Part shown: piece by piece, positions 21,601 through 62,599 of the stretch
Position numbering within the stretch: the first letter of the stretch is position 1
Layout: every line of letters begins with the position of its first letter
Assembly: GCF_030028105.1 (NCBI RefSeq)
Contig: NC_092395.1
Coordinates: 1,512,057-1,576,056 of the forward strand
Source: Mobula birostris
Lineage: Eukaryota
Length of the DNA: 64,000 bases
Reading direction: 5' to 3'
The notes under the pieces: model-generated
Seen by the model: the letters and a program-made list of their open reading frames with translations, nothing else
Databases searched by the model: none
Told to the model about the DNA's origin: nothing
Program-made: the position numbers and the translations under genes

Positions 21601-24600
21601 GTAATGTTCCAATTTGTTCTGTCTTTCATGTAAATACATAATTTGTTTCTCAGTTAGTCTTCTTTATACCTCTAACTAGTTTCATGACACTTTGGCTGAT
21701 TGGAGCAGCCACTTGATTGGGCCAAAATGTACTAGTCCTGATGTGTCCCAAATCACTAGAATCTACTGTGTTAAAAAAAACTCCCAACTCCTAATTCATC
21801 TAATCAGTGACTGCTGTAAATGCCAACCCTGGGCATTCTCTCTTCTCCCCTCTCCCACTGGGCAGAAGACACAAAAGCATGAAAGTACACATTACCAGGT
21901 TCAAGGATCACCTCTACAGCACTTTTATAAGACTATTGACTGGGCCTCTTGTCCTCATGATCTACCTCATTATGACCTTGCACTTTATCATTTACCCACG
22001 TTTTTCCAATAGCTCAAAATTCAAGATTTAAGTTTATTTGTCGGCTGTGCAAATGGTGTTCAGCTCACTACTCCACAGGGTTTACTCACTTCAGTGCTGA
22101 GCTGACTCTGTAGCCATGGCCTGTAAATATCAGCTCTCACCTCAGCGCTGAACTGGCTCTGTGACTGTGGACTCTGCCATTAATGCTCTGTGTGCTATTT
22201 GTTTACTTTTTTATTGCTTGCACAATTTGTTCTCTTTTCACCCCACACATTGGGTGTTTGATGGGCTTTGCTGTGTGGCGTTTTTTTAAAATGGGTTCTA
22301 TTGTGTTTCTTTCTTTTGTGGCTGCCTGCAACAAGACAAATCTCAAGGATGTATACAGTATACTGTACATACTTTGATAATAAACATACTTTGAACTTTG
22401 TACATTTTTATTCTACATTGCTATTGTTTTATCTTGCTCTACCTCGGTGCACAGTGTAATGATTTGATCTGTCTGAACTGTACACAAGACAAGGTTTTCA
22501 CTGTATCACGGTATGTGTGACAATAATAAACCCATACCAGTTCCAATTTAAGGCCCCTGGCTTTGGACAACTCGACAAACAGAAACATCCTCTCTATATC
22601 TACCCTACTGAACCCCTGCTTAATTCTGAGACCCTCTAATCTAGCGGTGGTGGAAATGAAGGAGGGGTTACACACCCGATGTATCGAGCAGTGGTGGAAA
22701 TGAAGGAGGGGTTACACACCCGATGTATCTAGCGGTGGTGGAAATGAAGGAGGGGTTACACACCCGATGTATCTAGCGGTGGTGGAAATGAAGGAGGGTG
22801 GAAATGAAGGAGGGGTTACACACCCGATGTATCGAGCAGTGGTGGAAATAAAGGAGGGGTTACACACCCGATGTATCTAGCGGTGGTGGAAGTGAAGGAG
22901 GGGTTACACACCCGATGTATCTATCAGTGGTGGAAATGAAGAAGGGGTTACACACCCGATGTTCGATACAGTGGTGGAAATGAAGGTGCAGCTACACACC
23001 CGATGTATCTATCAGTGGTGGAAATGAAGAAGGGGTTACACACCCGATGTTCGATACAGTCGGCCAGCAGAGCAACCATGAAGTTCAGACCTCCCAGATC
23101 CACAATGTCTTGGCAGAACTCATTCCTGACAGCAAGACGCGACAGGGTGCAGCACAGCTCACTGAGGACGGTGGGGTTTTCTGTGAAAGCTGCATTGGAG
23201 AGAAGATAATTGCAATAATAAAACATCTTTCACTGTGCTTTACAATCAATGCATTGTTGTAATACAAGTATGCAGGCTAACTAATTTGGGCACATCTAGC
23301 TCTCAAAGTTTGCCACTATTACATGCTAACTGAAACTCAGTTACAGACACTGTTAGTAAATATACTGTATGGGGATGATACCTAGTTGTATGAGGAGAAA
23401 GATCCTTGGCTTATATGAATCTTGAGCTGGATAGTGGATGTGGGTACAACAAGACATAGGAACATAATTAGGCCATTCCGTCCATCGAGTCTGTTCCGTC
23501 ATTCCATCAACACTGACTTATTATCCCTCTCAAGTCCCATTCTTTTGCCTTCTCCCAGTAACCTTTGATGCCCTTAATAATCAGGAACCTATCAACCACC
23601 GCTTTAATTATACTCAATGTCTTGGGCTCCACAGCCATCCTCGGCAATGAATTCCACTGATCCATCACACTCTGGCTAAGGAAATTCTTCCTCATCTCTG
23701 TTCTAAGTGGACATCCTTCTATTCTGAGGCTGTGCCCTCTGGTCCTAGACTCCCCCACTAAAGGAAACATCCTCTCTACAACCACTCTATCTAGGCCTTT
23801 CAATATGTTGCAATGACAACCCCACCCCCCAATCTTCTAACCTTCAGCGAGTACAGGCACAGAGCTACTAAATGCTCCTCATACATTAACCCTTTCATTC
23901 CCAGGATCATTCTCAGGAACATCCTCTGGACCCTCTCCAACGGCTGCACATTCTTAGATAAGGGGCCCAAAACTGCTCATTATGCTCCAAGAAAGCAGCC
24001 AAGTCAACCTCTCACTCAGTGGCAGCCAAGGAACTAATTATTGACTTCAGGAGGAAAGCGGAGGTCCATGAGCCAGTCCTCACTGAGGAATCAGAGGTGG
24101 AGAGTGTCAGCAACTTTAAATTCTTGGGAGTTATCATTTCAGAGGATCTGTCCTGGGCCAAGCACATAAATGCAATTACAAAGGAAAAAATGGCAGGAGT
24201 TCTAATTCCTTAGAGGTTTGCAAAGATTTGGCATGACATCTAAAAGTTTTGGATAAAATTCTATAGAAGTGCAGTGGACAGATATTGACTGGTTGCAGCA
24301 CAGCCTGGTATAGAAATACCAATGCCCTTAAATGGAAAAACCTACGAAGAGCAGTGGATATGGCCTAGTCCATCACCAGTAAAGTCCTCCACACCATTAA
24401 GCACATCTACACAGAACGCTGTTGTAGAAAAGCAGCATCCATTATCAAGGACTCCCCACACCCCTAGCCAGCTCTCTTCTCATTCTGCCAAAAGGAAAGC
24501 GATGTAGGAGCCTCAGGAACCATATGCCCAAGTTCAGAAACAGTTATTACCCCTCAACCATTAGGCTATTGAACCAAAGGGGATAACTTCACTTGCCCGT

Positions 24601-33600: not shown

Positions 33601-35109
33601 GGAGAGGGCAGGAGGAGCGAGACAGGGTCTGTAGCTGATAAGTGGGCAGAGGAGGGCTGAAGGAGCCAGGTGGGGAGAGGTGAGGTGGAGTCGGAAGATG
33701 CGGACAGGTAGCTGTGGGAGGAAGAAGCACACGGAGTTGTAGGGAGGTGAGGAGGAAGGTGCCGATACAAATAAGTGGGCCACATGTCCTGAAATCTGGA
33801 AACTAAGTAAAAAGTGATAATGGGAACCATTAAAGGACAGAACCAGATGGAGGAGAGATAGAGTGGGTGAACTGTGGAAGTGGTGGGTGGGTGGGTGGAA
33901 CCAGGCGGTAGGAAGGGCCAAAAATGGGAGGTGGGGTACTGGAAAGGGAACAAAAATGAGAAGATGAGCAGGAACCAGAGAAAGAAGAAAGTAGGAAACG
34001 GCACTGAAAGTGGAAAATTCAATGTTTACACCACTGGCTTGTAGACAATTCAGATGTTATATAAGGAGTTGTTCCTCTGCACTCTGGCACTGGAGAGGTT
34101 AGGGGACAAATAGGTTGGTGAGGGAATATGAAATGGCACATAACTGGGAGTTGAGAAGGCCACATGGGAGTCAATATCACACAACAACCAGATAGTTTGA
34201 AAATGAACAGGGTTCCCTGAAATTGTTAACTTTGAAATCAAGTTCTGGTCGCTATACTTGAGGAAGGATATACTGGCTTTGGAGGCAGTGCAGAGGAGGT
34301 TCACCAGGTTGATTCCAGAAATGAAGGGGAGATTGAATCGCCTGGGACTATACTCTCTGGAATTCAGAAGAATGAGAGGGGATCTTATAGAAACATACAA
34401 AATTTTGAAAGGGACAGATAAAAGTAGGAAAGTTGTTTCCATTGGTAGGTGAGACTAGAACTAGGGGACATTGCCTCAAGATTCAGGGGAGAAGATTTAG
34501 GACGGAGATGAGGAGAAACTGTTTTTCCCAGAGAGTGGTGAATCTGTAGAATTCTCTGCTCAGGGAAGCAGTTGAGGCTTCTTCACTAAATATATTTAAA
34601 ATACAGTTAGATAGATTTTTACATAGTAGGGGAATTAAGGGTTATGGGGAAAGGGCAGGTAGATGGAGCTGAGTTTACGGACAGATCAGCCATGATCTTA
34701 TTGAATGGGGGGCAGGCTCGATGGGCCAGATGGCCTACTCCTGCTCCTATTTCTTATGTTCTTATGTTACTAAGTTCCAAACTCTATAAACAGCCAGAGT
34801 GGAGGGTGATGGGTTCTTCCACAGTGCAGGAGGGCACTGACAGGTCAGGGTGGGAGTGGGTGAACAATTAAAGTGGCATAGATGTGGAAACTCTGAATGG
34901 CCATGCTGAACACCCAAAGTGCATTTGATATCTCCAAAGAGGAGAAGGGATTCAAAACAGGGAATGTCAGGATAAAGACTTCACCTACCTTGTGATTCAA
35001 ACTGTTGTATGGCCTCTTTCAAAGCCTCCTCTGGTTCCATCTCAAACTCAATCATGTTTTCTCGCACTACACTATCAAACGTCTCCTGAGTAATTCGTCT
35101 GCTCGCCAT
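9394..35109 (-). CDS. ARMC6: Armadillo repeat-containing protein 6, spliced CDS of 7 coding exons (34989-35109, 30505-30584, 25005-25575, 23044-23189, 15023-15154, 10599-10736, 9394-9606); 466 aa
   Basis: Exon lengths 121+80+571+146+132+138+213=1401 nt, all GT-AG, phases join into one ORF. The N-terminus [49 protein letters not shown] and C-terminus [27 protein letters not shown] match vertebrate ARMC6 as I recall it. Confidence 0.95.
10599..10736 (-). CDS. ARMC6: ARMC6 coding exon 6
   Basis: [46 protein letters not shown]; ctctcttcctacag| acceptor, CAG|gtgagg donor. Confidence 0.92.
12441..13813 (-). mobile_element. Rex1/Babar-type LINE 3' portion
   Basis: [23 protein letters not shown]...YKFAD...[38 protein letters not shown]; (CTGATT)-type tail. 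Confidence 0.8.
14300..14530 (+). mobile_element. Short RTE-derived non-autonomous element (second copy at about 20730-20975)
   Basis: Shared gggctagcaa...gtaaaaacccag...gaaagactggc; encodes [12 protein letters not shown], like an RTE C-terminus; (AGA)n tail. Confidence 0.5.
15023..15154 (-). CDS. ARMC6: ARMC6 coding exon 5
   Basis: [44 protein letters not shown]; ctgtag| acceptor, CAG|gtacag donor. Confidence 0.92.
15813..17301 (+). mobile_element. Retrotransposed insert with 3' transduction (two polyA tails, 16-bp TSD)
   Basis: TSD GGAAATTCAAAGCAAA at 15797-15812 and 17302-17317; internal AATAAA plus A-tail at about 16242-16265; terminal AATAAA at 17270-17275 plus A12 at 17290-17301. Confidence 0.8.
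17839..18417 (+). mobile_element. 5'-truncated CR1 inserted into CR1
   Basis: CR1 3' end with (TTTCTATG)n tail; host sequence atggttcca(a)gag duplicated on both sides. Confidence 0.75.
19326..19716 (+). mobile_element. Solo-LTR-like insertion in CR1
   Basis: TG...CA ends, AATAAA at about 19653, host CR1 reads through across it; no clear TSD. Confidence 0.5.
22639..23060. repeat. 44-bp minisatellite spanning the ARMC6 coding exon 4 donor
   Basis: cacacccgatgt recurs at 22671, 22715, 22759, 22819, 22863, 22907, 22951, 22995 and 23039. Confidence 0.95.
23044..23189 (-). CDS. ARMC6: ARMC6 coding exon 4
   Basis: (A)[48 protein letters not shown]; ctctccaatgcag| acceptor, CGG|gtgtgt donor. Confidence 0.92.
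23455..23985 (-). mobile_element. CR1 3' fragment
   Basis: [28 protein letters not shown]...RTEMRKNF. Confidence 0.8.
23995..24981 (+). mobile_element. Rex1/Babar-type LINE 3' fragments ending about 25 nt from an ARMC6 donor
   Basis: [10 protein letters not shown]...[16 protein letters not shown]; aaacctgattctgatt tail. Confidence 0.7.
25005..25575 (-). CDS. ARMC6: ARMC6 coding exon 3 (large ARM-repeat exon)
   Basis: [12 protein letters not shown]...[12 protein letters not shown]...[22 protein letters not shown]...IIEAAK; in frame with ORF 24889..25545; gtttatag| acceptor, AAG|gttccg donor. Confidence 0.93.
26069..26542 (-). mobile_element. 5'-truncated L1/Tx1-clade LINE with 18-bp TSD
   Basis: TSD AAGGAAGACCCCATTTGT at 26051-26068 and 26543-26560; polyT at the left end; HVVWECP and [14 protein letters not shown]2 C-terminal remnants. 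Confidence 0.8.
27985..28025. repeat. (TG)n-(CA)n microsatellite
   Basis: Directly visible. Confidence 0.85.
28115..29056 (+). mobile_element. CR1 3' portion
   Basis: [32 protein letters not shown]; tcttatggtctta tail. Confidence 0.85.
30505..30584 (-). CDS. ARMC6: ARMC6 coding exon 2
   Basis: (G)[26 protein letters not shown]; ctccctccag| acceptor, CAG|gtaaga donor. Confidence 0.92.
34240..34768 (+). mobile_element. CR1 3' fragment
   Basis: [14 protein letters not shown]...[20 protein letters not shown]; tcttatgttcttatg tail. Confidence 0.85.
34989..35109 (-). CDS. ARMC6: ARMC6 coding exon 1 (ATG at 35109; exon probably starts at 35134)
   Basis: [41 protein letters not shown]; acceptor tcttatcacag before 35134; donor AAG|gtaggt. 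Confidence 0.93.
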
Positions 35110-35334
35110 TCTTCCAGAACTTCACTTTCGGCAACTGTGATAAGATTTCACACTCAATGTACAGGAACGAAATTTTAATATTTTTTACTTTTTTTTAAAG
35201 AATGTTTAAGATTTAACTAGGACAGGTATGTAACATCTTTCTTCAAACATTTCAGGATGGATATATATTTCAGATACCTCCCACCCCCCACCCCTCATAT
35301 AGCTTAATTGAGTCTACCACAGCTTCAAGTTGCA

Positions 35335-38300
35335 GAGGAATGGAAGGTCGGGGTGAGGAAAGGGCCAGGATGGAATAAGGGGGAATGAGGGATGAGTGAA
35401 ATCAGGGAGGCCGGGCAAGGTTGGGATGAGATGAGGAGGATGAGGGAGATCAGGGAGGTGGGCATGGCCGTGTTGGGATGAGATGAGGAGGATGAGGGAT
35501 GAGGGAGATCGGGGAGGCTGAAGCCGGGCAGGGTTGGGATGAGATGAGGAGGATGAGGGATGAGGGAGATCGGGGAGGCTCGGGCCGGGATGGAATGAGA
35601 TGGGGAGGATGAGGGATGCGGGAGATCGGGGAGGCTGAAGCCGGGCAGGGTTGGGATGAGATGAGGAGCATGAGGTATGAGGGAGATCGGGGAGGCTCAA
35701 GCCGGGCCGGGTTGGGATGAGATGAGGAGGATGAGGGATGAGGGAGATCGGGGAGGTGGGCCGGGTTGGGATGGGATGAGGAGGATGAGGGATGAGGGAG
35801 ATCAGGGAGGCTGAAGCCGGGCAGGGTTGGGATGAGATGGGGAGGATGAGGGATGAAGGAGATCGGGGAGGTGGGCCGGGCCGGGTTGGTATGAGATGAG
35901 GAGGATGAGGGATGAGGGAGATCGGGGAGGCGGGCCGGGTTGGGATGAGATGAGGAGGATGAGGGATGAGGGAGATCGGGGAGGTGGGCCGGGCCGGGTT
36001 GGGATGAGATGAGGAGGATGAGGGATGAGGGATGAGGGAGATCGGGGAGGTGGGCCAGGCCGGGTTGGTATGAGATGAGGAGGATGAGGAAGATGAGGGA
36101 TGAGGGAGATTCAGGAGGCTCAAGCCGGGCCGGGTTGGTATGAGATGAGGAGGATGAGGGATGAGGGAGATCGGGGAGGCGGGCCGGGTTGGGATGAGAT
36201 GAGGAGGATGAGGGATGAGGGAGATCGGGGAGGTGGGCCAGGCCGGGTTGGTATGAGATGAGGAGGATGATGAGGATGAGGGATGAGGGAGATCGGGGAG
36301 GCTCAAGCCGGGCCGGGTTGGTATGAGATGAGGAGGATGAGGGATGAGGGAGATCGGGGAGGCGGGCCGGGTTGGGATGAGATGAGGAGGATGAGGGATG
36401 AGGGATGAGGGAGATCGGGGAGGTGGGCCGGGCCGGGTTGGTATGAGATGAGGAGGATGAAGGATGAGGGAGATCGGGGAGGTGGGCCGGGTTGGTATGA
36501 GATGAAGAGGATGAGGGATGAGGGAGATCGGGGAGGCGGGCCGGGCCGGGTTGGTATGAGATGAGGAGGATGAGGGATGAGGGAGATCGGGGAGGCTGAA
36601 GCCGGGCAGGGTTGGGATGAGATGAGGAGCATGAGGTATGAGGGAGATCGGGGAGGCTCAAGCCGGGCCGGGTTGGGATGAGATGAGGAGGATGAGGGAT
36701 GAGGGAGATCGGGGAGGTGGGCCGGGTTGGGATGGGATGAGGAGGATGAGGGATGAGGGAGATCAGGGAGGCTGAAGCCGGGCAGGGTTGGGATGAGATG
36801 GGGAGGATGAGGGATGAAGGAGATCGGGGAGGTGGGCCGGGCCGGGTTGGTATGAGATGAGGAGGATGAGGGATGAGGGAGATCGGGGAGGCGGGCCGGG
36901 TTGGGATGAGATGAGGAGGATGAGGGATGAGGGAGATCGGGGAGGTGGGCCGGGCCGGGTTGGGATGAGATGAGGAGGATGAGGGATGAGGGATGAGGGA
37001 GATCGGGGAGGTGGGCCAGGCCGGGTTGGTATGAGATGAGGAGGATGAGGAAGATGAGGGATGAGGGAGATTCAGGAGGCTCAAGCCGGGCCGGGTTGGT
37101 ATGAGATGAGGAGGATGAGGGATGAGGGAGATCGGGGAGGCGGGCCGGGTTGGGATGAGATGAGGAGGATGAGGGATGAGGGAGATCGGGGAGGTGGGCC
37201 AGGCCGGGTTGGTATGAGATGAGGAGGATGATGAGGATGAGGGATGAGGGAGATCGGGGAGGCTCAAGCCGGGCCGGGTTGGTATGAGATGAGGAGGATG
37301 AGGGATGAGGGAGATCGGGGAGGCGGGCCGGGTTGGGATGAGATGAGGAGGATGAGGGATGAGGGATGAGGGAGATCGGGGAGGTGGGCCGGGCCGGGTT
37401 GGTATGAGATGAGGAGGATGAAGGATGAGGGAGATCGGGGAGGTGGGCCGGGTTGGTATGAGATGAAGAGGATGAGGGATGAGGGAGATCGGGGAGGCGG
37501 GCCGGGCCGGGTTGGTATGAGATGAGGAGGATGAGGGATGAGGGAGATCGGGGAGGCTCAAGCCGGGCAGAGTTGGTATGAGATGAGGAGGATGAGGGAT
37601 GAGGGAGATCGGGGAGGTGGGCCGGGTTGGGTTGGTATGAGATGGGGAGGATGAGGGATGAGGGAGATCGGGGAGGCTCAAGCCGGGCCGGGTTGGTATG
37701 AGATGAGGAGGATGAGGGATGAGGGAGATCGGGGAGGCAGGCCGGGTTGGGATGAGATGAGGAGGATGAGGGATGAGGGATGAGGGAGATCGGGGAGGTG
37801 GGCCGGGTTGGGATGGTATGAGATGAGGAGGATGAGGGATGAGGGATGAGGGAGATCGGGGAGGTGGGCCGGGTTGGGATGGTATGAGATGAGGAGGATG
37901 AGGGATGAGGGATGAGGGAGATCAGGGAGGTGGGCCGGGTTGGGATGGTATGAGATGAGGAGGATGAGGGATGAGGGAGATCGGGGAGGTGGGCCGGGTT
38001 GGGTTGGTATGAGATGAGGAGGATGAGGGATGAGGGAGATCGGGGAGGCGGGCCGGGTTGGTATGAGATGAGGAGGATGAGGGATGAGGGAGATCGGGGA
38101 GGCGGGCCGGGTTGGTATGAGATGAGGAGGATGAGGGATGAGGGAGATCGGGGAGGCGGGCCGGGTTGGTATGAGATGAGGAGGATGAGGGATGAGGGAT
38201 GAGGGATGAGGGATGAGGGAGATCGGGGAGGTGGGCCGGGTTGGGATGGTATGAGATGAGGAGGATGAGGGATGAGGGATGAGGGAGATCGGGGAGGTGG

Positions 38301-41300
38301 GCCGGGTTGGGATAGTATGAGATGAGGAGGATGAGGGATGAGGGATGAGGGAGATCGGGGAGGTGGGCCGGGTTGGGATGGTATGAGATGAGGAGGATGA
38401 GGGATGAGGGAGATCGGGGAGGTGGGCCGGGTTGGGTTGGTATGAGATGAGGAGGATGAGGGATGAGGGAGATCGGGGAGGCGGGCCGGGTTGGTATGAG
38501 ATGAGGAGGATGAGGGATGAGGGAGATCGGGGAGGCGGGCCGGGTTGGTATGAGATGAGGAGGATGAGGGATGAGGGAGATCGGGGAGGCGGGCCGGGCC
38601 GGGTTGGTATGAGATGAGGAGGATGAGGGATGAGGGAGATCGGGGAGGCTCAAGCCGGGCCGAGTTGGTATGAGATGAGGAGGATGAGGGATGAGGGATG
38701 AGGGAGATCGGGGAGGTGGGCCGGGTTGGGATGGTATGAGATGAGGAGGATGAGGGATGAGGGAGATCGGGGAGGTGGGCCGGGTTGGGTTGGTATGAGA
38801 TGAGGAGGATGGGGGATGAGGGAGATCGGGGAGGCGGGCCGGGTTGGTATGAGATGAGGAGGATGAGGGATGAGGGAGATCGGGGAGGCGGGCCGGGCCG
38901 AGTTGGTATGAGATGAGGAGGATGAGGGATGAGGGATGAGGGAGATCGGGGAGGTGGGCCGGGTTGGGATGGTATGAGATGAGGAGGATGAGGGATGAGG
39001 GATGAGGGAGATCGGGGAGGTGGGCCGGGTTGGGATGGTATGAGATGAGGAGGATGAGGGATGAGGGATGAGGGAGATCGGGGAGGTGGGCCGGGTTGGG
39101 ATGGTATGAGATGAGGAGGATGAGGGAGATCGGGGAGGCTCAAGCCGGGCCGGGTTGGTATGAGATGGGGAGGATGAGGGATGAGGGATGAGGGATGAGG
39201 GAGATCGGGGAGGTGGGCCGGGTTGGGTTGGTATGAGATGAGGAGCATGAGGGATGAGGGAGATCGGGGAGGCTCAAGCCGGGCCGGGTTGGTATGAGAT
39301 GAGGAGGATGAGGGATGAGGGATGAGGGATGAGGGAGATCGGGGAGGTGGGCCGGGCCGGGTTGGTATGAGATGAGGAGGATGAGGGATGAGGGAGATCG
39401 GGGAGGCTCAAGCCGGGCCGAGTTGGTATGAGATGAGGAGGATGAGGGATGAGGGATGAGGGAGATCGGGGAGGTGGGCCGGGTTGGGATGGTATGAGAT
39501 GAGGAGGATGAGGGATGAGGGAGATCGGGGAGGCTCAAGCCGGGCCGGGTTGGTATGAGATGGGGAGGATGAGGGATGAGGGAGATCGGGGAGGCTCAAG
39601 CCGGGCCGGGTTGGTATGAGATGAGGAGGATGAGGGATGAGGGAGATCGGGGAGGTGGGCCGGGTTGGGTTGGTATGAGATGAGGAGGATGAGGGATGAG
39701 GGAGATCGGGGAGGTGGGCCGGGTTGGGTTGGTATGAGATGGGGAGGATGAGGGATGAGGGAGATCGGGGAGGTGGGCCGGGTTGGGTTGGTATGAGATG
39801 AGGAGGATGAGGGATGAGGGATGAGGGATGAGGGAGATCGGGGAGGTGGGCCGGGCCGGGTTGGTATGAGATGAGGAGGATGAGGGATGAGGGAGATCGG
39901 GGAGGCTCAAGCCGGGCCGAGTTGGTATGAGATGAGGAGGATGAGGGATGAGGGAGATCGGGGAGGCGGGCCAGGCCGGGTTGGTATGAGATGAGGAGGA
40001 TGAGGGATGAGGGAGATCGGGGAGGCGGGCCGGGTTGGTATGAGATGAGGAGGATGAGGGATGAGGGATGAGGGAGATCGGGGAGGTGGGCCGGGTTGGG
40101 ATGGTATGAGATGAGGAGGATGAGGGATGAGGGATGAGGGAGATCGGGGAGGTGGGCCAGGTTGGGATGGTATGAGATGAGGAGGATGAGGGATGAGGGA
40201 TGAGGGAGATCGGGGAGGTGGGCTGGGTTGGGATGGTATGAGATGAGGAGGATGAGGGATGAGGGATGAGGGAGATCGGGGAGGTGGGCCGGGTTGGGAT
40301 GGTATGAGATGAGGAGGATGAGGGATGAGGGATGAGGGAGATCGGGGAGGTGGGCCGGGTTGGGATGGTATGAGATGAGGAGGATGAGGGATGAGGGAGA
40401 TCGGGGAGGCTCAAGCCGGGCCGGGTTGGTATGAGATGAGGAGGATGAGGGATGAGGGATGAGGGATGAGGGAGATCGGGGAGGCTCAAGCCGGGCCGGG
40501 TTGGGATGAGATGAGGAGGATGAGGGATGAGGGAGATCGGGGAGGCTCAAGCCGGGCGGGGTTGGTATGAGATGGGGAGGATGAGGGATGAGGGAGATCG
40601 GGGAGGCGGGCCGGGCCGAGTTGGTATGAGATGAGGAGGATGAGGGATGAGGGATGAGGGAGATCGGGGAGGCGGGCCGGGCCGATTTGGTATGAGATGA
40701 GGAGGATGAGGGATGAGGGAGATCGGGGAGGCTCAAGCCGGGCCGGGCTGGTATGAGATGGGGAGGATGAGGGATGAGGGAGATCGGGGAGGCGGGCCGG
40801 GCCGGGCCGGGTTGGTATGAGATGAGGAGGATGAGGGATGAGGGAGATCGGGGAGGTGGGCCGGGTTGGGTAGGTATGAGATGAGGAGGATGAGGGATGA
40901 GGGAGATCGGGGAGGCTCAAGCCGGGCCGAGTTGGTATGAGATGAGGAGGATGAGGGATGAGGGATGAGGGAGATCGGGGAGGCTCAAGCCGGGCCGGGC
41001 CGAGTTGGTATGAGATGAGGAGGATGAGGGATGAGGGATGAGGGATGAGGGAGATCGGGGAGGTGGGCCGGGTTGGGTTGGTATGAGATGAGGAGGATGA
41101 GGGATGAGGGAGATCGGGGAGGTGGGCCGGGTTGGGTTGGTATGAGATGAGGAGGATGAGGGATGAGGGAGATCGGGGAGGTGGGCCGGGTTGGTATGAG
41201 ATGAGGAGGATGAGGGATGAGGGAGATCGGGGAGGTGGGCCGGGTTGGGTTGGTATGAGATGAGGAGGATGAGGGATGAGTGAGATCGGAGAGGTGGGCC

Positions 41301-44300
41301 GGGTTGGTATGAGATGAGGAGGATGAGGGATGAGGGAGATCGAGGAGGTGGGCCGGGTTGGGTTGGTATGAGATGAGGAGGATGAGGGATGAGGGAGATC
41401 GGGGAGGCTCAAGCCGGGCCGGGTTCGTATGAGATGAGGAGGATGAGGGATGAGGGATGAGGGAGATCAGGGAGGCGGGCCGGGCCGGGTTGGGATGAGA
41501 TGAGGAGGATGAGGGATGAGGGATGAGGGAGATCGGGGAGGCGGGCCGGGTTGGGTTGGTATGAGATGGGGAGGATGAGGGATGAGGGAGATCGGGGAGG
41601 TGGGCCGGGTTGGGTTGGTATGAGATGAGGATGATGAGGGATGAGGGATGAGGGAGATCGGGGAGGTGGGCCGGGCCGGGTTGGTATGAGATGGGGAGGA
41701 TGAGGGATGAGGGATGAGGGAGATCGGGGAGGCTCAAGCCGGGCCGGGTTGGTATGAGATGGGGAGGATGAGGGATGAGGGAGATCGGGGAGGCGGGCCG
41801 GGCCGAGTTGGTATGAGATGAGGAGGATGAGGGATGAGGGATGAGGGATGAGGGAGATCGGGGAGGCTCAAGCTGGGCCGGGTTGGTATGAGATGAGGAG
41901 GATGAGGGATGAGGGAGATCGGGGAGGCTCAAGCCGGGCCGGGTTGGTATGAGATGAGGAGGATGAGGGATGAGGGAGATCGGGGAGGTGGGCCGGGTTG
42001 GGATGGTATGAGATGGGGAGGATGAGGGATGAGGGAGATCGGGGAGGTGGGCCGGGTTGGGATGGTATGAGATGGGGAGGATGAGGGATGAGGGAGATCG
42101 GGGAGGCGGGCCGGGTTGGGTTGGTATGAGATGGGGAGGATGAGGGATGAGGGAGATCGGGGAGGTGGGCCGGGTTGGGATGGTATGAGATGAGGAGGAT
42201 GAGGGATGAGGGATGAGGGAGATCGGGGAGGCGGGCCGGGTTGGGTTGGTATGAGATGGGGAGGATGAGGGATGAGGGAGATCGGGGAGGTGGGCCGTGT
42301 TGGGATGGTATGAGATGGGGAGGATGAGGGATGAGGGAGATCGGGGAGGCGGGCCGGGCCGAGTTGGTATGAGATGAGGAGGATGAGGGATGAGGGAGAT
42401 CGGGGAGGCGGGCCGGGTTGGTATGAGATGAGGAGGATGAGGGATGAGGGAGATCGGGGAGGCGGGCCGGGCCGAGTTGGTATGAGATGAGGAGGATGAG
42501 GGATGAGGGAGATCGGGGAGGCTCAAGCCGGGCCGAGTTGGTATGAGATGAGGAGGATGAGGGATGAGGGAGATCGGGGAGGCGGGCCGGGTTGATATGA
42601 GATGGGGAGGATGAGGGATGAGGGAGATCGGGGAGGCGGGCCGGGTTGGTATGAGATGAGGAGGATGAGGGATGAGGGAGATCGGGGAGGCGGGCCGGGT
42701 TGGTATGAGATGAGGAGGATGAGCGATGAGGGATGAGGGATGAGGGAGATCGGGGAGGTGGGCCGGGCCGGGTTGGTATGAGATGAGGAGGATGAGGGAT
42801 GAGGGACATCGGGGAGGCGGGCCGGGTTGGGATGAGATGAGGAGGATGAGGGATGAGGGAGATCGGGGAGGTGGGCAGGGTTGGGATGGTATGAGATGAG
42901 GAGGATGAGGGATGAGGGAGATCGGGGAGGCGGGCCGGGCCGAGTTGGTATGAGATGAGGAGGATGAGGGATGAGGGAGATCGGGGAGGCGGACCGGGTT
43001 GGGATGAGATGAGGAGGATGAGGGATGAGGGATGAGGGATGAGGGAGATCGGGGAGGCGGGCCGGGTTGGGATGAGATGAGGAGGATGACGGATGAGGGA
43101 TGAGGGATGAGGGGGATCGGGGAGGCGGGCCGGGTTGGTATGAGATGAGGAGGATGAGGGATGAGGGATGAGGGAGATCGGGGAGGTGGGCCGGGTTGGG
43201 TTGGTATGAGATGAGGAGGATGAGGGATGAGGGATGAGGGAGATCGGGGAGGTGGGCCGGGCCGGGTTGGGTTGGGATGAGATGAGGAGGATGAGGGATG
43301 AGGGAGATCGGGGAGGCTCAAGCCGTGCCGGGTTGGTATGAGATGGGGAGGATGAGGGATGAGGGAGATCGGGGAGGTGGGCCGGGTTGGGTTGGTATGA
43401 GATGAGGACGATGAGGGATGAGGGATGAGGGATGAGGGAGATCGGGGAGGTGGGCCGGGCCGGGTTGGGTTGGGATGAGATGAGGAGGATGAGGGATGAG
43501 GGAGATCGGGGAGGCTCAAGCCGGGCCGGGTTGGTATGAGATGGGGAGGATGAGGGATGAGGGATGAGGGATGAGGGAGATCGGGGAGGTGGGCCGGGCC
43601 GGGTTGGGTTGGGATGAGATGAGGAGGATGAGGGATGAGGGAGATCGGGGAGGCTCAAGCCGGGCCGAGTTGGTATGAGATGGGGAGGATGAGGGATGAG
43701 GGATGAGGGATGAGGGAGATCGGGGAGGCGGGCCGGGCCAGGCCGGGTTGGTATGAGATGGGGAGGATGAGGGATGAGGGAGATCGGGGAGGCGGGCCGG
43801 GCCGGGTTGGGATGAGATGAGGAGGATGAGGGATGAGGGATGAGGGAGATCGGGGAGGCTCAAGCCGGGCCGAGTTGGTATGAGATGAGGAGGATGAGGG
43901 ATGAGGGAGATCGGGGAGGCGGGCCGGGTTGGTATGAGATGAGGAGGATGAGGGATGAGGGAGATCGGGGAGGCGGGCCGGGTTGGGATGAGATGAGGAG
44001 GATGAGGGATGAGGGATGAGGGATGAGGGAGATCGGGGAGGCGGGCCGGGTTGGTATGAGATGAGGAGGATGAGGGATGAGGGATGAGGGATGAGGGAGA
44101 TCGGGGAGGTGGGCCGGGTTGGTATGAGATGAGGAGGATGAGGGATGAGGGATGAGGGATGAGGGAGATCGGGGAGGCGGGCCGGGTTGGTATGAGATGA
44201 GGAGGATGAGGGATGAGGGATGAGGGAGATCGGGGAGGTGGGCCGGGTTGGGTTGGTATGAGATGAGGAGGATGAGGGATGAGGGAGATCGGGGAGGTGG

Positions 44301-47300
44301 GCCGGGTTGGGATGGTATGAGATGAGGAGGATGAGGGATGAGAGATGAGGGAGATCGGGGAGGTGGGCCGGGTTGGGATGGTATGAGATGAGGAGGATGA
44401 GGGATGAGGGATGAGGGAGATCGGGGAGGTGGGCCGGGTTGGGATGGTATGAGATGAGGAGGATGAGGAGGATGAGGGATGAGGGAGATCGGGGAGGCTC
44501 AAGCCGGGCCGGGTTGGTATGAGATGGGGAGGATGAGGGATGAGGGAGATCGGGGAGGCCGGCCGGGTTGGTATGAGATGAGGAGGATGAGGGATGAGGG
44601 ATGAGGGATGAGGGAGATCGGGGAGGCGGGCCGGGTTGGTATGAGATGAGGAGGATGAGGGATGAGGGATGAGGGATGAGGGAGATCGGGGAGGTGGGCC
44701 GGGTTGGGTTGGTATGAGATGAGGAGGATGAGGGATGAGGGAGATCGGGGAGGCTCAAGCCGGGCCGGGTTGGGATGAGATGAGGAGGATGAGGGATGAG
44801 GGAGATCGGGGAGGTGGGCCGGGCCGGGTTGGTATGAGATGAGGAGGATGAGGGATGAGGGAGATCGGGGAGGCGGGCCGGGTTGGGATGAGATGAGGAG
44901 GATGAGGGATGAGGGAGATCGGGGAGGCTCAAGCCGGGCCGGGTTGGTATGAGATGGGGAGGATGAGGGATGAGGGAGATCGGGGAGGCGGGCCGGGCCG
45001 GGTTGGTATGAGATGAGGAGGATGAGGGATGAGGGAGATCGGGGAGGCTCAAGCCGGGCCGGGTTGGGATGAGATGAGGAGGATGAGGGATGAGGGAGAT
45101 CGGGGAGGTGGGCTGGGCCGGGTTGGTATGAGATGAGGAGGATGAGGGATGAGGGAGATCGGGGATGCGGGCCGGGCCGGGTTGGTATGAGATGAGGAGG
45201 ATGAGGGATGAGGGATGAGGGAGATCGGGGAGGCGGGCCGGGCCGGGTTGGTATGAGATGAGGAGGATGAGGGATGAGGGAGATCGGGGAGGCGGGCCGG
45301 GCCGGGTTGGTATGAGATGAGGAGGATGAGGGATGAGGGATGAGGGAGATCGGGGAGGCGGGCCGGGCCGGGTTGGTATGAGATGAGGAGGATGAGGGAT
45401 GGGGAGGATGAGGGAGATCGGGGAGGTGGGCCGGGTTGGGATGGTATGAGATGAGGAGGATGAGGAGGATGAGGGATGAGGGAGATCGGGGAGGCTCAAG
45501 CCGGGCCGGGTTGGTATGAGATGGGGAGGATGAGGGATGAGGGAGATCGGGGAGGCTCAAGCCGGGCCGGGTTGGTATGAGATGGGGAGGATGAGGGATG
45601 AGGGAGATCGGGGAGGCTCAAGCCGGGCCGGGTTGGTATGAGATGGGGAGGATGAGGGATGAGGGAGATCGGGGAGGCTCAAGCCGGGCCGGGTTGGTAT
45701 GAGATGGGGAGGATGAGGGATGAGGGATGAGGGAGATCGGGGAGGCTCAAGCCGGGCCGGGTTGGTATGAGATGGGGAGGATGAGGGATGAGGGATGAGG
45801 GAGATCGGGGAGGTGGGCCAGGCCGGGTTGGTATGAGATGGGGAGGATGAGGGATGAGGGATGAGGGAGATCGGGGAGGCTCAGGCCGGGCCGGGTTGGG
45901 ATGAGATGAGGAGGATGAGGGATGAGGGAGATCGGGGAGGTGGGCCGGGTTGGGTTGGTATGAGATGAGGAGGATGAGGGATGAGGGATGAGGGAGATCG
46001 GGGAGGTGGGCCGGGTTGGGTTGGTATGAGATGGGGAGGATGAGGGATGAGGGATGAGGGAGATCGGGGAGGCTCAAGCCGGGCCGGGTTGGTATGAGAT
46101 GGGGAGGATGAGGGATGAGGGAGATCGGGGAGGCTCAAGCCGGGCCGGGTTGGTATGAGATGGGGAGGATGAGGGATGAGGGAGATCGGGGAGGCTCAAG
46201 CCGGGTTGGGTTGGTATGAGATGGGGAGGATGAGGGATGAGGGATGAGGGAGATCGGGGAGGCTCAAGCCGGGCCGGGTTGGTATGAGATGGGGAGGATG
46301 AGGGATGAGGGAGATCGGGGAGGCTCAAGCCGGGCCGGGTTGGTATGAGATGAGGAGGATGAGGGATCAGGGATGAGGGAGATCGGGGAGGTGGGCCGGG
46401 TTGGGATGGTATGAGATGAGGAGGATGAGGAGGATGAGGGATGAGGGAGATCGGGGAGGCTCAAGCCGGGCCGGGTTGGTATGAGATGGGGAGGATGAGG
46501 GATGAGGGATGAGGGAGATCGGGGAGGTGGGCCGGGTTGGGTTGGTATGAGATGAGGAGGATGAGGAGGATGAGGGAGATCGGGGAGGCGGGCCGGGCCG
46601 GGTTGGTATGAGATGGGGAGGATGAGGGATGAGGGATGAGGGAGATCGGGGAGGCTCAAGCCGGGTTGGGTTGGTATGAGATGGGGAGGATGAGGGATGA
46701 GGGATGAGGGAGATCGGGGAGGTGGGCCGGGTTGGGTTGGTATGAGATGGGGAGGATGAGGGATGAGGGAGATCGGGGAGGTGGGCCGGGCCGGGTTGGT
46801 ATGAGATGGGGAGGATGAGGGATGAGGGAGATCGGGGAGGCTCAAGCCGGGCCGGGTTGGGATGAGATGAGGAGGATGAGGGATCAGGGATGAGGGAGAT
46901 CGGGGAGGTGGGCCGGGTTGGGATGAGATGAGGAGGATGAGGAGGATGAGGGATGAGGGAGATCGGGGAGGCAGGCCGGGTTGGGATGAGATGAGGAGGA
47001 TGAGGAGGATGAGGGATGAGGGATGAGGGAGATCGGGGAGGTGGGCCGGGTTGGGTTGGTATGAGATGGGGAGGATGAGGGATGAGGGAGATCGGGGAGG
47101 CGGGCCGGGCCGGGTTGGTATGAGATGGGGAGGATGAGGGATGAGGGAGATCGGGGAGGCTCAAGCCGGGCCGGGTTGGTATGAGATGAGGAGGATGAGG
47201 GATGAGGGATGAGGGAGATCGGGGAGGCGGGCCGGGTTGGGTTGGTATGAGATGAGGAGGATGAGGGATGGGGAGGATGAGGGAGATCGGGGAGGTGGGC

Positions 47301-47850
47301 CGGGTTGGGATGGTATGAGATGAGGAGGATGAGGGATCAGGGATGAGGGAGATCGGGGAGGCGGGCCGGGTTGGGTTGGGATGAGATGAGGAGGATGAGG
47401 GATGGGGAGGATGAGGGAGATCGGGGAGGTGGGCCGGGTTGGGATGGTATGAGATGAGGAGGATGAGGGATGAGGGATGAGGGAGATCGGGGAGGTGGGC
47501 CGGGTTGGGATGGTATGAGATGAGGAGGATGAGGGATCAGGGATGAGGGAGATCGGGGAGGCGGGCCGGGTTGGGTTGGTATGAGATGAGGAGGATGAGG
47601 GATGGGGAGGATGAGGGAGATCGGGGAGGTGGGCCGGGTTGGGATGGTATGAGATGAGGAGGATGGGGAGGATGAGGGATGAGGGAGATCGGGGAGGCTC
47701 AAGCCGGGTTGGGTTGGTATGAGATGAGGAGGATGAGGGATGAGGGATGAGGGAGATCGAGGAGGCGGGCCGGGCCGGGTTGGTATGAGATGAGGAGGAT
47801 GAGGAGGATGAGGGAGATCGGGGAGGCGGGCCGGGCCGGGCCGGGCCGAG
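35335..47850. repeat. ~12.5-kb G-rich modular minisatellite (about 200 units, mostly 54-75 bp) filling ARMC6 intron 1
   Basis: Near-invariant anchor GAGGGAGATCGGGGAGG plus variable slots: CTCAAGCC/TGGGCC/CGGGCC; pentamers GGGCC/GGGTT/GAGTT/GGGAT; GGTATGAGAT; GAGGAGGAT; (GAGGGAT)0-4. Confidence 0.97.
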
Positions 47851-48340
47851 GGAGCGGTCGGTACCTCGACAAACCGCTGGACGAATCGGCCACCTTCACC
47901 CACTTCAGCACCGCCGGCTGTGCAACACTTTTCCCTTCCCCTCTCCCCACCCTCTGGGTCTCCGTAAGACGGCCGATTGGTTCCTATGTACGGCGGAACG
48001 CTTGCCAAACGCACTCACTTCCGGTTCCAGCCTTGGGGCGCGATGAACGACAGAGGAGAGAGGGGAGGGCGGTTTTGTTCTGTTCTGGTTTCTCCCTGCG
48101 GGGTCACACGAAGTTCAAGTTCAGACCGAGGTGCGCCACACAGAACATATACTGTCTGTAACTCACACATTTAACACAAAGTAATATTTCCGCAAACAAT
48201 AAGGTGCATTTACGGCACAAGTTATAAAGTAAGCGGTGTAACGCTGCCGGTGCTTCGTGATGGGACGTGTTTGGTGGTAGGGAGCGCGGTAGTCCGTCTC
48301 CGACCGGGGGAAAGGAGCTCCTCCTGCCTGACCGGTGGGG
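47850..48340 (-). promoter_or_regulatory. CpG-island promoter and probable non-coding exon 1 of ARMC6
   Basis: CpG-rich unique sequence. Minus-strand candidate donors GAG|gtaccg (exon end 47865) and GAA|gtgagt (exon end 48019). CCAAT box at 47976-47980 (minus strand) and ETS motif CCGGAAGTG at 48016-48024. The first coding exon has an upstream acceptor, so a 5' exon is expected. Confidence 0.6.
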
Positions 48341-49780
48341 GTCATACTCCCCTCGCAAAACGGTGGAGGAACCAAGCAGGTCAGGCGGTGTCTATGGAAA
48401 GAAATGAACAGCGGGCGAGACCCTTCATCAGGACTGCATGCCAAGGCACGGAAGATGGGAAATTGGAAAGTCACTATTTAAAAACGGAGAGTAGAATTGG
48501 TTACCCAGTATCAGGGGAAAGGAAACTGATTCAGCCACAAAAGATGCTATAAACATACCTAGTAAATATCAGTGAGACGAAAGATTTTTAGACAAAGTGC
48601 CACATAAGAAGTAGACGCATGAAATAAACCTTATGGGTTTTGGGGTAACTTACTGGCAGAGGTTGGGAACTGGTTAATAGGAGAAAGAAAACAGGAATAA
48701 AGTTTTTTTCCCCCTCTGAGGGGGCAGTGGTAATCAGTACAGTACCAGAGGGATCGATATAAGTCCCCTTCCATAAGGCATAGGAGCAAAATTAGGCCGT
48801 TTGGCCCATCGAGTCTGTTCCACCATTCCATCATGGCTGCTTTATTATCACTCTCAACCCCATTCCCCCCACTGTACAGCAGTGGTCAGACAGGGTGAGA
48901 ACACAGAACTGGGTAAGATTGTAAATCGTGAAGAGGAAACAAAGCAAAGACCAGGTGACTGTATGGGCAACAACAAAACAACTTGGTAAAGTCTGAACGC
49001 AAAACACTGCAGCACCATACAAGACCTTTAGTCGCAATTTGACCCAACCTCCTGACCACCATATACAACCCTGAGACTCATTTTCTTGCAGGCGTTCACA
49101 GTAGGTACAAAGAAACACAATAGAATCAATGAAAGACCTCACCCAATGAGATGAACAAACAACCAATTTGCAAAAGACAAACTGTTCAAATACAAAAGGA
49201 AAAATAATGAATAAGGAATAAATGTCAAGAACATGAAATGGATAATGTTATCTGGAGAATAGTAGAGAGCTAGTTGTGAACAAAGGCAGCTAACCCTGAA
49301 CACACGGCCTGCAGACAACAAAAAGAGGAATTAATCTATATTTTTTTTTAAAACTCTACTTTGTGTGAGGTGCTTCCCCCAAAATCCAGAGACACAAAAT
49401 GTTGGAGTTATTCACTGGCCTGAGGTGACAGGGTCATAAGACAATGCCAAACTTCCTCAGACTTTGCCTTCCTAAGAACACTACACACAAAATGCTGGAG
49501 GAACTCAGTAGGTCCAGCAGCATGAATAGAGGGGATAAAGAGTCGATGTATATTCCCCTCCATAGATACTGCCGGACCTGCTGAGCTCCTCCAGCATTTT
49601 GTGTGAGTTGGTCGAGACCTCCCCCATCTGCAGAATCCCTTGTGTTTATACCTTTCGAAGAAACTATCGTTCAGTTCTTCCGGCCCAGCCTCCGGTCAAA
49701 CCCCCACAATCCCCGCACAGATTCTCAAGAATAGAAAAGGCGCAGAGTTTCTCAAGAGTTGAAAACTTATTTCCCGAGCC

Positions 49781-49873: not shown

Positions 49874-50734
<861 letters not shown>

Positions 50735-52651: not shown

Positions 52652-55282
52652 TCATAAGACCATAAGACAAAGGAGCAGAAGTCGGCCATTCGGCCCATCG
52701 AGTCTGCTCCGCCATTTTATCATGAGCTGATCCATTCTCCCATTTAGTCCCACTGCCCTGCCTTCTCACCATAACCTTTGATGCCCCGGCTACTCAGATA
52801 CCTATCAATCTGCCTTAAATACACCCAGTGACTTGGCCTCCACTGCTGCCCGTGGCAACAAATTCCATAGATCCACCACCCTCTGGCTAAAAAAATTTCT
52901 TCGCATTTCTGTTCTGAATGGGCGCCCTTCAATCCTTAAGTCATGCCCCCTCGTACTAGACTCCCCCATCATGGGAAACAACTTTGCCACATCCACTCTG
53001 TCCATGCCTTTCAACATTCGAAATATTTCTATAAGGTCTCCCCTCATTCTTCTAAACTCCAAGGAATACAGTCCAAGAGCAGACAAATGTTCCTCATGTG
53101 TTAACCCTCTCATTCCCGGAATCATTCTAGTGAATCTTCTCTGTACCCTCTCCAACGTCAGCACATCCTTTCTTAAATAAGGAGACCAAAACTGCCCACA
53201 GTACTCCAAGTGAGGTCTCACCAGTGCCTTATAGACCCTCAACATCACATCCCTGCTCCTATACTCTATTCCTCTAGAAATGAATGCCAACATTGCATTC
53301 GCCTTCTTCACTACTGACTCAACCTGGAGGTTAACCCTAAGGGTATCCTGTACGAGGACTCCCAAGTCCCGTTGCATCTCAGAACTTTGAATTCTTTCCC
53401 CATTTAAATAATAGTCTGCTCATTTATTTCTTCTGCCAAAGTGCATAACCACACACTTTCCAATATTGTACTTCATTTGCCACCTCTCTGCCCATTCTTC
53501 CAATCTATCCAAGTCTCTCTGCAGACTCTCCGTTTCCTCAGCACTACCAGCCCCTCCACCTATCTTCGTATCGTCAGCAAACTTAGCAACAAAGCCATCT
53601 ATTCCATAATCCAAATCATTGATGTACAATGTAAAAAGAAGCGGCCCCAACACTGATCCCTGTGGAACACCACTGGTAACCGGCAGCCAACCAGAATAGG
53701 ATCCCTTTATTCCCACTCTCTGTTTCCTGCCAATCAGCCAACGTTCTATCCACATATGTAACTTTCCCGTAATTCCATGGGCTCTTATCTTGTTAAGTAG
53801 CCTCATGTGCGGCACCTTGTCAAAGGCCTTCTGAAAATCCAAATATACAACATCCACTGCATCTCTCTTGTCTAGCCTACTGGTAATTTCCTCAAAAAAT
53901 TGTAATAGGTTTGTCAGGCAGGATTTTCCTTTAAGGAAACCATGCTGAGTTCTGCCTATCTTGTCATATGCCTCCAGGTACTCTGTAACCTCATCCTTGA
54001 CAATCGACTCCAACAACTTCCCAACCACCGATGTCAAGCTAACAGGTCTATAATTTCCTTTTTGCTTCCTTGCCCCCTTCTTAAATAGCAGAGTGACATT
54101 TGCAATCTTCCAGTCCTCCAGGACCATGCCAGAATCTATCGACTTTTGAATGGTCATTGCTAGTGCCTCCGCAATCTCCACAGCTACTTCCTTCAGAACA
54201 CGCGGGTCCATCTGGTCTGGGAGATTTATCTACCTTTAGACTATTCAGCTTCCTGAGTACTTTCTCTGTCATAATTGTGACTGCGCACACTTCTCTTCCC
54301 TGCCACCCTTGAGTGCCCGTATACTGCTGATGTCTTCCTCAGTGAAGAGTGGTGCAAAATACTCGTTCAATTCCTCTGCCATCTCCTTATCTCCCATTAC
54401 AATTTCTCCAGCATCATTTTATCATCCTATATCTACTCGTACCTGTCTTTTACTCTTTATATACTTGAAAAAGCTTTTAGTATCCTCTTTGATATTATTT
54501 GCTAGCTTCCTTTCATAGTTCATCTTTTCCCTCTTAATGACCTTCTTAGTTTCCTTTTGTAAGGTTTTAAAAACTTCCCAATCCTCTGTCTTCCCACTAA
54601 TTTTTGCTTCCTTGTATGCCCTCTCCTTTGCTCTAACTTTGGCTTTGACTTCTCTTGTCAGCCACGGTTGCATCCTTTTCCCATTCGAAAATTTCTTCAT
54701 TTTTGGAATATACTTGTCTTGCACTTTCCTCACTTCTCGCATAAACTTCAGCCAATGCTGCTCTGCTGTCTTTCCTGCCAGTGTCCCTTTCCAGTCAACT
54801 TTGGCCAGTTCCTCTCTCATGCCACTGTAATTTCCTTTACTCCGCTGAAATACTGACACATCAGATTTCAGCTTCTCTTTTTCAAATTTCACAGTGAACT
54901 CAATCATGTTATGATCACTGCCTCCTAAGTTCCTTCATCTCAATCTCTCCAATCACCTCCGGTTCATTACACAATACCCAATCCAGTACAGCCGATCCCC
55001 TAGTGGGCTCAACAACAAGCTGTTCTAAAAAGCCATCTCGCAGACATTCTACAAATTCTCTCTCTTGAGATCCAGTGCCAACCTGATTTTCCCAATCCAC
55101 TCGCATGTTAAAATCCCCCACAATTATCATAACACTGCCCTTCTGACAAGCCTTTTCTATCTCCTGTTGTAATTTGTAGTCCACATCCCTGCAGCTGTTT
55201 GGAGGCCTATAAATAACTGCCATCAGGGTCCTTCTACCCCTGCGATTTCTTAGCTCAACTCATAAGGATTCTGCACCTTCTG
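52652..55282 (-). mobile_element. Relatively young 5'-truncated CR1 LINE (endonuclease C-terminal part, RT, 3' UTR) between the TSSK6 copies
   Basis: ORF2 in four long pieces (54915-55223 YRPP/GDFN, 54422-54907, 53420-54211 PQGSVLGP/FADD, 52805-53377); (TCTTATGG) tail at about 52652-52668. Confidence 0.92.
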
Positions 55283-55978: not shown

Positions 55979-56839
<861 letters not shown>

Positions 56840-60883: not shown

Positions 60884-61607
60884 GTGTGGGAACGGGATGG
60901 GGTAGTTGTGGGAATGGGATGGGGTAGGTGTGGGAATAGGATGGGGGTAGGTGTGGGAACGGGATGGGGTAGTTGTGGGAACGGGATGGGGGTAGGTGTG
61001 GGAATGGGATGGGGTAGGTGTGGGAACGGGATGGGGTAGTTGTGGGAACGGGATGGGGTAGGTGTGGGAATGGGATGGGGTAGGTGTGGGAACGGGATGG
61101 GGGTAGGTGTGGGAACGGGATGGGGTAGTTGTGGGAACGGGATGGGGGTAGGTGTGGGAACGGGATGGGGGTAGGTGTGGGAACGGGCTGAGGGTAGGTG
61201 TGGGAATGGGATGGGGTAGGTGTGGGAATGGGATGGGGTAGTTGTGGGAATGGGATGGGGGTAGGTGTGGGAATGGGATGGGGGTAGTTGTGGGAACGGG
61301 ATGGGGGTAGTTGTGGGAACGGGATGGGGGTAGGTGTGGGAACGGGATGGGGGTAGGTGTGGGAATGGGATGGGGGTAGTTGTGGGAATGGGATGGGGTA
61401 GTTGTGGGAATGGGATGGGGGTAGGTGTGGGAATGGGATGGGGATAGGTGTGGGGATGGGGATAGGTGTGGGAATGGGATGGGGATAGTTGTGGGAATGG
61501 GATGGGAGTAGGTTTGGGAATGGGATGGGGGTAGGTTTGGGAATGGGATGGGGTAGGTGTGGGAATGGAATGGGGTAGGTGTGGGAATGGGATGGGGGTA
61601 GGTGGGG
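60884..61607. repeat. 22-23-bp G-rich minisatellite (GTGGGAAYGGGATGGGG(G)TAGKT)n, about 32 copies
   Basis: Directly visible tandem units. Confidence 0.95.
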
Positions 61608-62599
61608 AGAACCTTTCCAGCACTGAGGACACATTCAAAAGGGGATGACTCAAACAGGCAGCATCCATCACCCTCACCACCCTGGACTTGCCCTCTGCTC
61701 ATTGCTACCATCTTTTTGCTCTCCTCCTGCACAATGTATTTAATTAAAAAATATATTGGTTATTATAATTTCTGGTATTTTATTATTATGTACTGCACTG
61801 AACTGCTGCTGCAAAACAACCAATTGCACGATATATGCCAGTGATGTTAAACCTAGTTCTCATTCTGAGGGTTCAAAACCAGGTTCAGGAATGGCTACTT
61901 TCCTTCGAACATTCTGTTCTTAAACCAACTGGCACAACCCAAATCACTGCCTCAGTATAGCAACACTGAACACTGTGATCACTTTCCACTACAAGGGATA
62001 TTTTTGTTCTAATTGTGTTCTTTCTTGTAGAAATTATATATAATTTATTTGTTTGTTGTGACGCTGCTTATCTGATGTGGTGAGCATGTGATGCTGCTGC
62101 AAATAAGTTTTTTTTATTGCACCTGTGCCAACATGCACTTGTGCAGGTGATGGTAAACACGGCTTTTACTTTGGAAACTTAGTTGTGCAGACATTCATTA
62201 CGAGCATCCAACTTTGCAGACCAGCTCCGGAACCAGTATCAGGTTTAATGTAGTCATAGAACACTACAGCACAGAAACAAGCCCTTTGGCCCATCTAGTC
62301 TACCACCAAACTATTATTCTGCCTAGACCCATCGACCTGCACCCAGACCATAGCCCTCTGCACCTCTCCCATTCATGTACCTATCCAAATTTCTCTTAAA
62401 TGTTGAAATTAAACCTGCATCCACCACTTCCACTGGCAGCTTGCTCCACACTCTCACCACCATTATGTTCCCTAGATGCAAAGTGTTTCCCTTACACAAA
62501 CTTCTTTCACCTGCCCTGTCTCATTCTCTAATAGGAGATCTAGTATCACAGTCGCTCTAGCTGGGATTTCTATTTGCTGATTAATAAAACTTTTCTGAA

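Follow-up and report, generated by a model that had tools for sequence, protein, structure and literature searches.

A variant-repeat minisatellite of about 200 units very likely lies in the first intron of ARMC6 in Mobula birostris

Variant-repeat minisatellites, the loci to which MVR mapping is applied, consist of intermingled GC-rich variant units of 10 to more than 100 bp in arrays of 100 bp to more than 20 kb, and MVR mapping already reads a variant-repeat code for each allele at such ordinary minisatellites (PMC1929145, in the part of its text available to us). When the G4-forming human minisatellite CEB1 is carried in yeast it rearranges through Rad51/Rad52-dependent repair and yields hybrid units (PMC2673046, available sections), and for human minisatellite loci conversion by strand annealing has been put forward as a model (PMC2599865, available sections). 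A core motif of human hypervariable minisatellites is listed in PMC9069542. Lineage-specific intronic VNTRs with variable unit composition are also described, among them the 30-bp TRACT repeat of CACNA1C, a 69-bp repeat in WDR7 and a 25-bp repeat in ABCA7 (PMC13196383, available sections). Shark and ray genomes hold many simple tandem repeats, which are more frequent near the ends of chromosomes and on the shorter ones (PMC10620051; bioRxiv 10.1101/2025.06.08.657570; accessible portions of both).

We analysed a 64,000-nucleotide stretch of M. birostris DNA (the window), for which an earlier note had described a minisatellite of about 200 units at 35335-47850. This large G-rich array is real in the window sequence. 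TRF reports it as a single array at 35438-47840 (period 59, 198.6 copies, score 12125). Its 17-mer anchor occurs in 183 exact copies, or 200 at up to 3 mismatches, over both strands of the 64 kb; all lie within the array, and the remaining 51.5 kb of the window contain none on either strand. Cutting from anchor to anchor gives 198 units between 35442 and 47809, 107 of them distinct, and a fixed-length token parse succeeds for 197, the one unparsed unit being left out of every slot count. The described array was therefore borne out by TRF, anchor search and parse alike, and so was the set of slots named for it, although an extra tail 9-mer (16 of 197 units) and a 961-bp duplication had been overlooked. 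Units are strung together from short G-rich words of 5, 7 and 9 nt. The 135 units that are pure slot strings carry no other change, and units differ in length only by whole words gained or lost (197/197 parsed units), a regularity partly built into the parser. The G-rich strand of the array is the plus strand, which serves ARMC6 as template; a partial unit at 47810-47850 closes the array with (GGGCC)4. The coordinates of these and neighbouring features are collected in Table 1.

Table 1. Features of the ARMC6 intron 1 region, in window coordinates
Feature	Position	Strand	Basis
ARMC6 exon 2, first coding, ATG at 35109	34989..35134	-	exon mapping, named isoforms
ARMC6 intron 1 (putative), 12,730 bp, GT 47864-47863, AG 35136-35135	35135..47864	-	contig arithmetic
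Minisatellite of about 200 units, 52-80 bp each (most often 59, 61, 66, 68, 54)	35334..47850		TRF, anchor search, parse
Two degenerate units, acceptor-side edge	35334..35441		unit comparison
Exact tandem duplication, 961 bp, 16 units	35620..37541 (copies 35620-36580, 36581-37541)		0 differences
7-unit duplication, 433-bp period, 241 bp exact, older	37925..38598		exact-repeat search
ARMC6 exon 1 (putative), non-coding	47865..47913	-	RNA-like contig starts 47913 (X6), 47908 (X13)
CpG-island promoter, CpG o/e 0.79-1.05	47851..48450		200-bp windows starting 47851-48251
CCAAT box (presumed)	47980-47976	-	motif
ETS-type CCGGAAGTG (presumed)	48024-48016	-	motif

The array is a variant-repeat (MVR-type) minisatellite, a known kind at a new locus and in unusually clean form. 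Its head-to-tail units of 52-80 bp and its length of 12.5 kb fall within the ranges of about 10-100 bp and 0.1 to more than 20 kb; recurrent unit variants are intermingled (62 slot codes among 197 units, with short-range clustering); and hybrid units occur together with block duplications (7 of 9 site pairs show all four gametes; the 961-bp and 433-bp duplications). The junction of the 961-bp duplication lies inside an anchor plus 2 nt, and the duplication is either a recent event or a duplication made by the assembly. The literature searched held no earlier description of the array, although supplementary repeat tables could list it; the main text of bioRxiv 10.64898/2026.10.27.761883 does not describe it. 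A 30-mer from the array gave 0 matches in metagenome contigs, which says little about the ray genome.

The gene that surrounds the array is ARMC6. The nearest named matches of its large exon are stingray ARMC6 sequences (97% in Hemitrygon), and Mobula birostris ARMC6 records agree with the exons in the window except at positions beyond exon ends. Seven coding exons, all on the minus strand, run from 35109 to 9397. At the end of the large exon, alternative donors at 25005, 24999 and about 24969 (minus strand; the third position estimated from a 12-residue insert) add 0, 2 or 12 residues in named isoforms. Further along the gene, a 44-bp minisatellite (22639-23060, minus strand) stands at the start of the intron that follows the exon ending at 23044. 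The exon-intron junction falls inside its first unit, so that nine copies of the donor word occur across 22639-23060, and the first of the nine donors is used in all 8 named Mobula ARMC6 isoforms aligned. The human F7 intron 7 VNTR is reported to have the same design (PMC1557585).

The upstream boundary of ARMC6 was placed with contigs from 4 of 24 sequencing runs, compared with 652 bp at the right end of the array. Two minus-strand contigs, which we guess to be RNA, start close together: X6 (223 nt) at 47913 and X13 (841 nt) at 47908, one per run. They come from two organisms and two studies, the sample of X6 differing from the window's possible source, and each matches the genome for only 51-56 letters; their starts give a weak hint of the ARMC6 start site. 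A DNA contig of organism B (X9 record 25) continues through the promoter and for 28 further letters towards the array. Run X1, the possible source of the window, has no contig over the promoter among those listed, a gap that carries no weight as evidence. The RNA-like contigs carry 2 differences from the genome; with the donor at 47864, exactly 2 would fall in the first 7 letters after it for only 1 of 14 candidate acceptors, 35134; the mismatch positions in these contigs are themselves deduced, and the left end of the alignment coincides with the repeat edge, where alignment stops. From 47908 through acceptor 35134 to the first of two known alternative donors, the predicted length is 44 + 146 + 80 + 571 = 841 nt, exactly that of X13, whereas the other candidate acceptors predict 817-1029 nt; this exact fit belongs to organism B, and the array itself is known from this window's assembly only. 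X13 would stop at that length because a contig is expected to end at an alternative-donor branch. From the mismatch fit and the 841-nt length we infer intron 1 as given in Table 1.

On this contig arithmetic the array very likely lies within an intron, with a non-coding exon 1 on one side and the first coding exon on the other, and the contig starts, mismatches and 841-nt length place it inside an intron of a gene that would be expressed. It occupies 12,461 of the 12,730 bp of the putative intron (97.9%), which agrees with the earlier statement of about 98%. The distances given for its edges hold as well: it begins 14 nt from the exon-1 donor, and its other edge is about 200 nt short of the acceptor when the degenerate units are included, or 255 nt counted to 35390. 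Minus-strand ORFs of 981 and 313 aa within the array are low-complexity by-products and not coding sequence; all 8 aligned Mobula ARMC6 isoforms are without an N-terminal extension. The sense strand of the array contains 4 GT dinucleotides against 216 expected from composition, a scarcity that we do not attribute to selection against cryptic donors; the array repeats a single unit 200 times, and GT is likewise missing from 49% of shuffled units.

On the promoter side the array adjoins the CpG island, in which we take two motifs to be a CCAAT box and an ETS-type site (Table 1). Short dispersed-repeat fragments at 48145-48250 and 48345-48400, just upstream of the ARMC6 promoter, match hundreds of contigs of both organisms. 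For a possible divergent partner gene at 48040-48130, neither RNA-like contig cover nor a Pfam match was found there. In the Pfam scan, which covered 122 of the 181 stop-free frames right of the array, the only matches were to two kinases, part of a LINE endonuclease and, below threshold, one other. The kinases are two intronless TSSK6-like genes (49922-50734 and 56027-56839, plus strand) of 270 aa each, 70% identical and divergent from ARMC6; paired TSSK6-like relatives are named in sharks, skates and rays. ORFs resembling fragments of LINE reverse transcriptase or endonuclease lie at 52805-54907 (minus), 18709-19143 (plus) and 15354-15815 (plus), and presumably belong to a CR1-like family.

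The earlier note had pictured a near-fixed anchor with separately varying slots. Once the units are decomposed and slot independence is checked, that picture does not stand for neighbouring slots: 62 slot strings are observed in 197 units where independent slots would give 96.8±3.1, the lowest of 2000 shuffles being 86, and the mutual information between head and pentamers is 0.62 against 0.065, part of this linkage depending on where the slots are cut. GGGTT-GGGAT follows the T head only (30/30), and the CTCAAG head precedes a single pentamer in 0 of 38 cases. Distant slots, by contrast, are near independent (c1 with tail, p = 0.63; 9-mer with tail, p = 0.18), so that near-independence survives only for the distant tail count. 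Recombination among slots, on the other hand, was upheld. All four gametes are present in 7 of 9 pairs of substitution sites (r2 0.001-0.106); of these seven pairs, five have at least 7 units per class, two depend on just one unit, and a CpG site is involved in two. The slots are in partial linkage broken by recombination. Nor is the anchor special, with 0.52% of its bases substituted against 0.25%, 0.54% and 1.07% in the other fixed parts of the unit. We therefore set aside a designed-looking combinatorial cassette of fixed anchor and independent slots, given the 62 codes where 97±3 would be expected and an unexceptional anchor. The window also provides an internal control, a second G-rich array at 60884-61608 with about 32 units of 22-23 bp and three two-state slots. 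There, all 8 of 8 three-slot combinations of the 23-bp repeat occur in the 22 pure units of 31, and free mixing of slots is thus a generic pattern.

To describe how the array grew, we dropped the 16 units of the second 961-bp copy from the recombination, local-spread, CpG and spectrum counts, which leaves 181 units in the spectrum. All of the array statistics have one allele of one assembly as their basis. Similarity between units falls with distance along the array: of 181 pairs of neighbours, 32 have the same four-slot code, compared with 81 of 1484 pairs separated by at least 128 units, and runs of at least 3 matching units number 33, where 300 shuffles give 3.8 on average and never more than 12. 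The frequency spectrum is split. Of 52 variable sites, 35 are singletons, 11 are present in 2-5 copies, none in 6-14 and 6 in at least 15, where steady neutral turnover would predict 9.6, 12.1, 9.4 and 20.9, respectively. A Tajima-type D is -2.07, with 0 of 600 simulations as low; with the left end and all CpG sites removed, singletons still make up 21 of the 28 sites and D is -1.78 (P = 0.008), under a coalescent null that ignores recombination and local structure and with a count to which assembly errors would also contribute singletons. In a toy simulation, low linkage together with about 90% singletons arises only if mixing occurs during growth and later overwriting stays at or below about 0.5 per base, although in this high-singleton regime the mean r2 of the model is 0.09 at best against 0.037 observed. 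The split spectrum points to burst growth with in-register recombination and slower change afterwards.

Active slot shuffling, as the earlier note had it, is accordingly only partly retained: the singleton excess and the toy simulation place most of the shuffling in the growth phase, and recent change takes the form of block duplication. Non-slot variants are concentrated at the acceptor end (23 of 65 lie in 35400-36650), which is for that reason likely to be the oldest part of the array. Singletons amount to 0.2-0.3% per base against a promoter divergence of 2.3% between organisms A and B. By this rough comparison, the present array is probably younger than the split of the two organisms.

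The array holds about 540 CpGs. Transitions affect 17 of 1014 CpG sites against 12 of 6116 other C/G sites, an 8.5-fold excess that rises to 10.5-fold beyond 37540; nanopore errors at methyl-CpG could mimic such transitions, yet these would imply methylation too. The excess therefore implies an array that is presumably methylated. Transversions outside the slots fall almost only at C/G positions (23 of 6116 non-CpG C/G sites against 2 of 4221 A/T sites, 35390-47850), possibly through guanine oxidation or consensus error. On the plus strand, canonical G4 motifs number 178 in the array and 23 in the rest of the window, and 59.5% of array windows reach a G4Hunter score of at least 1.2 against 1.5% in the flanks; G4 potential is thus predicted. 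A 13-nt stretch of the human hypervariable minisatellite core has 75 sites in the array within 1 mismatch and none elsewhere in the window. Units with the T head share 12 of its 13 letters, a match that one unit attains by chance in 10-13 of 4000 shuffles, for a motif chosen after looking. Computationally, then, the array has the G-rich strand with core-like motif and G4 potential that characterizes the CEB1/MS32 class.

From these observations, we hypothesize that a variant-repeat minisatellite fills ARMC6 intron 1, that in-register recombination and slippage expanded it in a burst from a small number of founders, and that it is a neutral passenger that is spliced out; we give this reading a probability of about 0.75. 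The common slots would be differences among the few founder units, supplemented by products of word-level slippage. Fork stalling at G-quadruplexes would lead to homology-directed repair that copies from out-of-register units, and such copying would create hybrid units and mix the founder variants while the array grew. By analogy, repair of the CEB1 type is the likely mechanism. After the burst, change would have consisted mostly of single point changes, many by deamination of methyl-CpG, with occasional block duplications. ARMC6 would tolerate the array, since splicing of exon 1 to exon 2 apparently persists.

Several other readings have to be weighed against neutral growth in a burst. The array might be a currently hypermutable germline minisatellite of the CEB1/MS32 type, in which alleles exchange repeats every few generations and maps differ between animals. 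It is G-rich, G4-prone and beside a CpG-island promoter, it has the 75 core-like sites found nowhere else in the window (for a motif picked post hoc), and the exact 961-bp duplication, if real, is a recent change. We nevertheless consider current hypermutability unlikely, because fast steady shuffling would spread new mutations: 21 of 23 non-slot, non-CpG sites are singletons, against 27-58% in the toy model at 3-10 overwrites per base.

A more far-reaching proposal, which we regard as a long shot, is that a methylated, G4-rich block of 12.5 kb was gained after this ray split from its close relative, 14 nt from exon 1 of a housekeeping-type gene, that its length or slot composition would set ARMC6 output for each allele, and that the array would be a frozen record of one recombination burst. 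If the frozen-burst part were true, the array would offer a unit-by-unit record and a direct test of minisatellite birth at CpG-island edges.

That the array is a promoter-proximal regulator, with ARMC6 transcription or splicing adjusted to its length or slot composition through spreading of methylation, pausing at G4 structures or factor binding, we find harder still to credit. Its position fits such a role, starting 14 nt from the exon-1 donor and adjoining the CpG island, as do the approximately 540 CpGs with their methylation signature, and there are human precedents in CACNA1C, ABCA7 and WDR7 (PMC13196383, sections available) and in TMCO1, CUL4A and SIRT3 (PMC12776774, sections available). 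However, no part of the unit is conserved above the rest, the scarcity of sense-strand GT is matched by a fraction of 0.49 of shuffled units, and the array seems young, with singletons at 0.2% per base against the 2.3% promoter divergence.

Least probable of all is an array inflated or scrambled by the assembly and in reality much shorter: the copies of the 961-bp duplication do differ at 0 positions where about 5 would be expected if they were as old as the rest (0.27% singleton rate), but the array has just 3 exact repeats of at least 190 bp, which limits the part that looks duplicated to about 1 kb. Moreover, the 198 units include 107 different ones, all but one of the 198 parse with no single-base indel although G runs are frequent, and the private variants are CpG-biased.

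We consider the overall biological weight of the array to be modest. If alleles differ, it could serve as an informative single-locus long-read marker for manta and devil rays. It would be a clean case of a methylated repeat beside an active CpG-island promoter, and equally a clean case for separating the variant-repeat patterns left by a growth burst from those of steady turnover, a question that the split spectrum makes testable with few more alleles.

Among described systems, the closest are the minisatellites mapped by MVR-PCR (human MS32, CEB1 and MS205; mouse MMS24/26/30/80), which have intermingled GC-rich variants like those of the 12.5-kb array (PMC1929145, available part). They share hybrid units with it, formed at those loci by conversion-type repair (PMC2599865, PMC2673046, available parts), as well as a core-like motif and G4 potential. 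It differs in that its variants are often whole-word length changes, built from nested 5-, 7- and 9-mers, and not only base substitutions, and, unlike the hypervariable MVR loci, its variant spectrum, as seen in one allele, suggests slower present turnover. With the VNTRs of CACNA1C, WDR7 and ABCA7 it has in common a long intronic array of variant units; for those loci, however, effects on expression, splicing or disease have been measured (PMC13196383, for both points in the sections available), whereas the ARMC6 array is known from its sequence alone. In contrast to them, it very likely takes up 98% of a first intron and lies directly beside the promoter. As in the repeat-rich genomes of elasmobranchs, the window carries two minisatellites besides the ARMC6 intron-1 array; the papers on those genomes, in their accessible portions, treat repeats in bulk and not this locus (PMC10620051; bioRxiv 10.1101/2025.06.08.657570).
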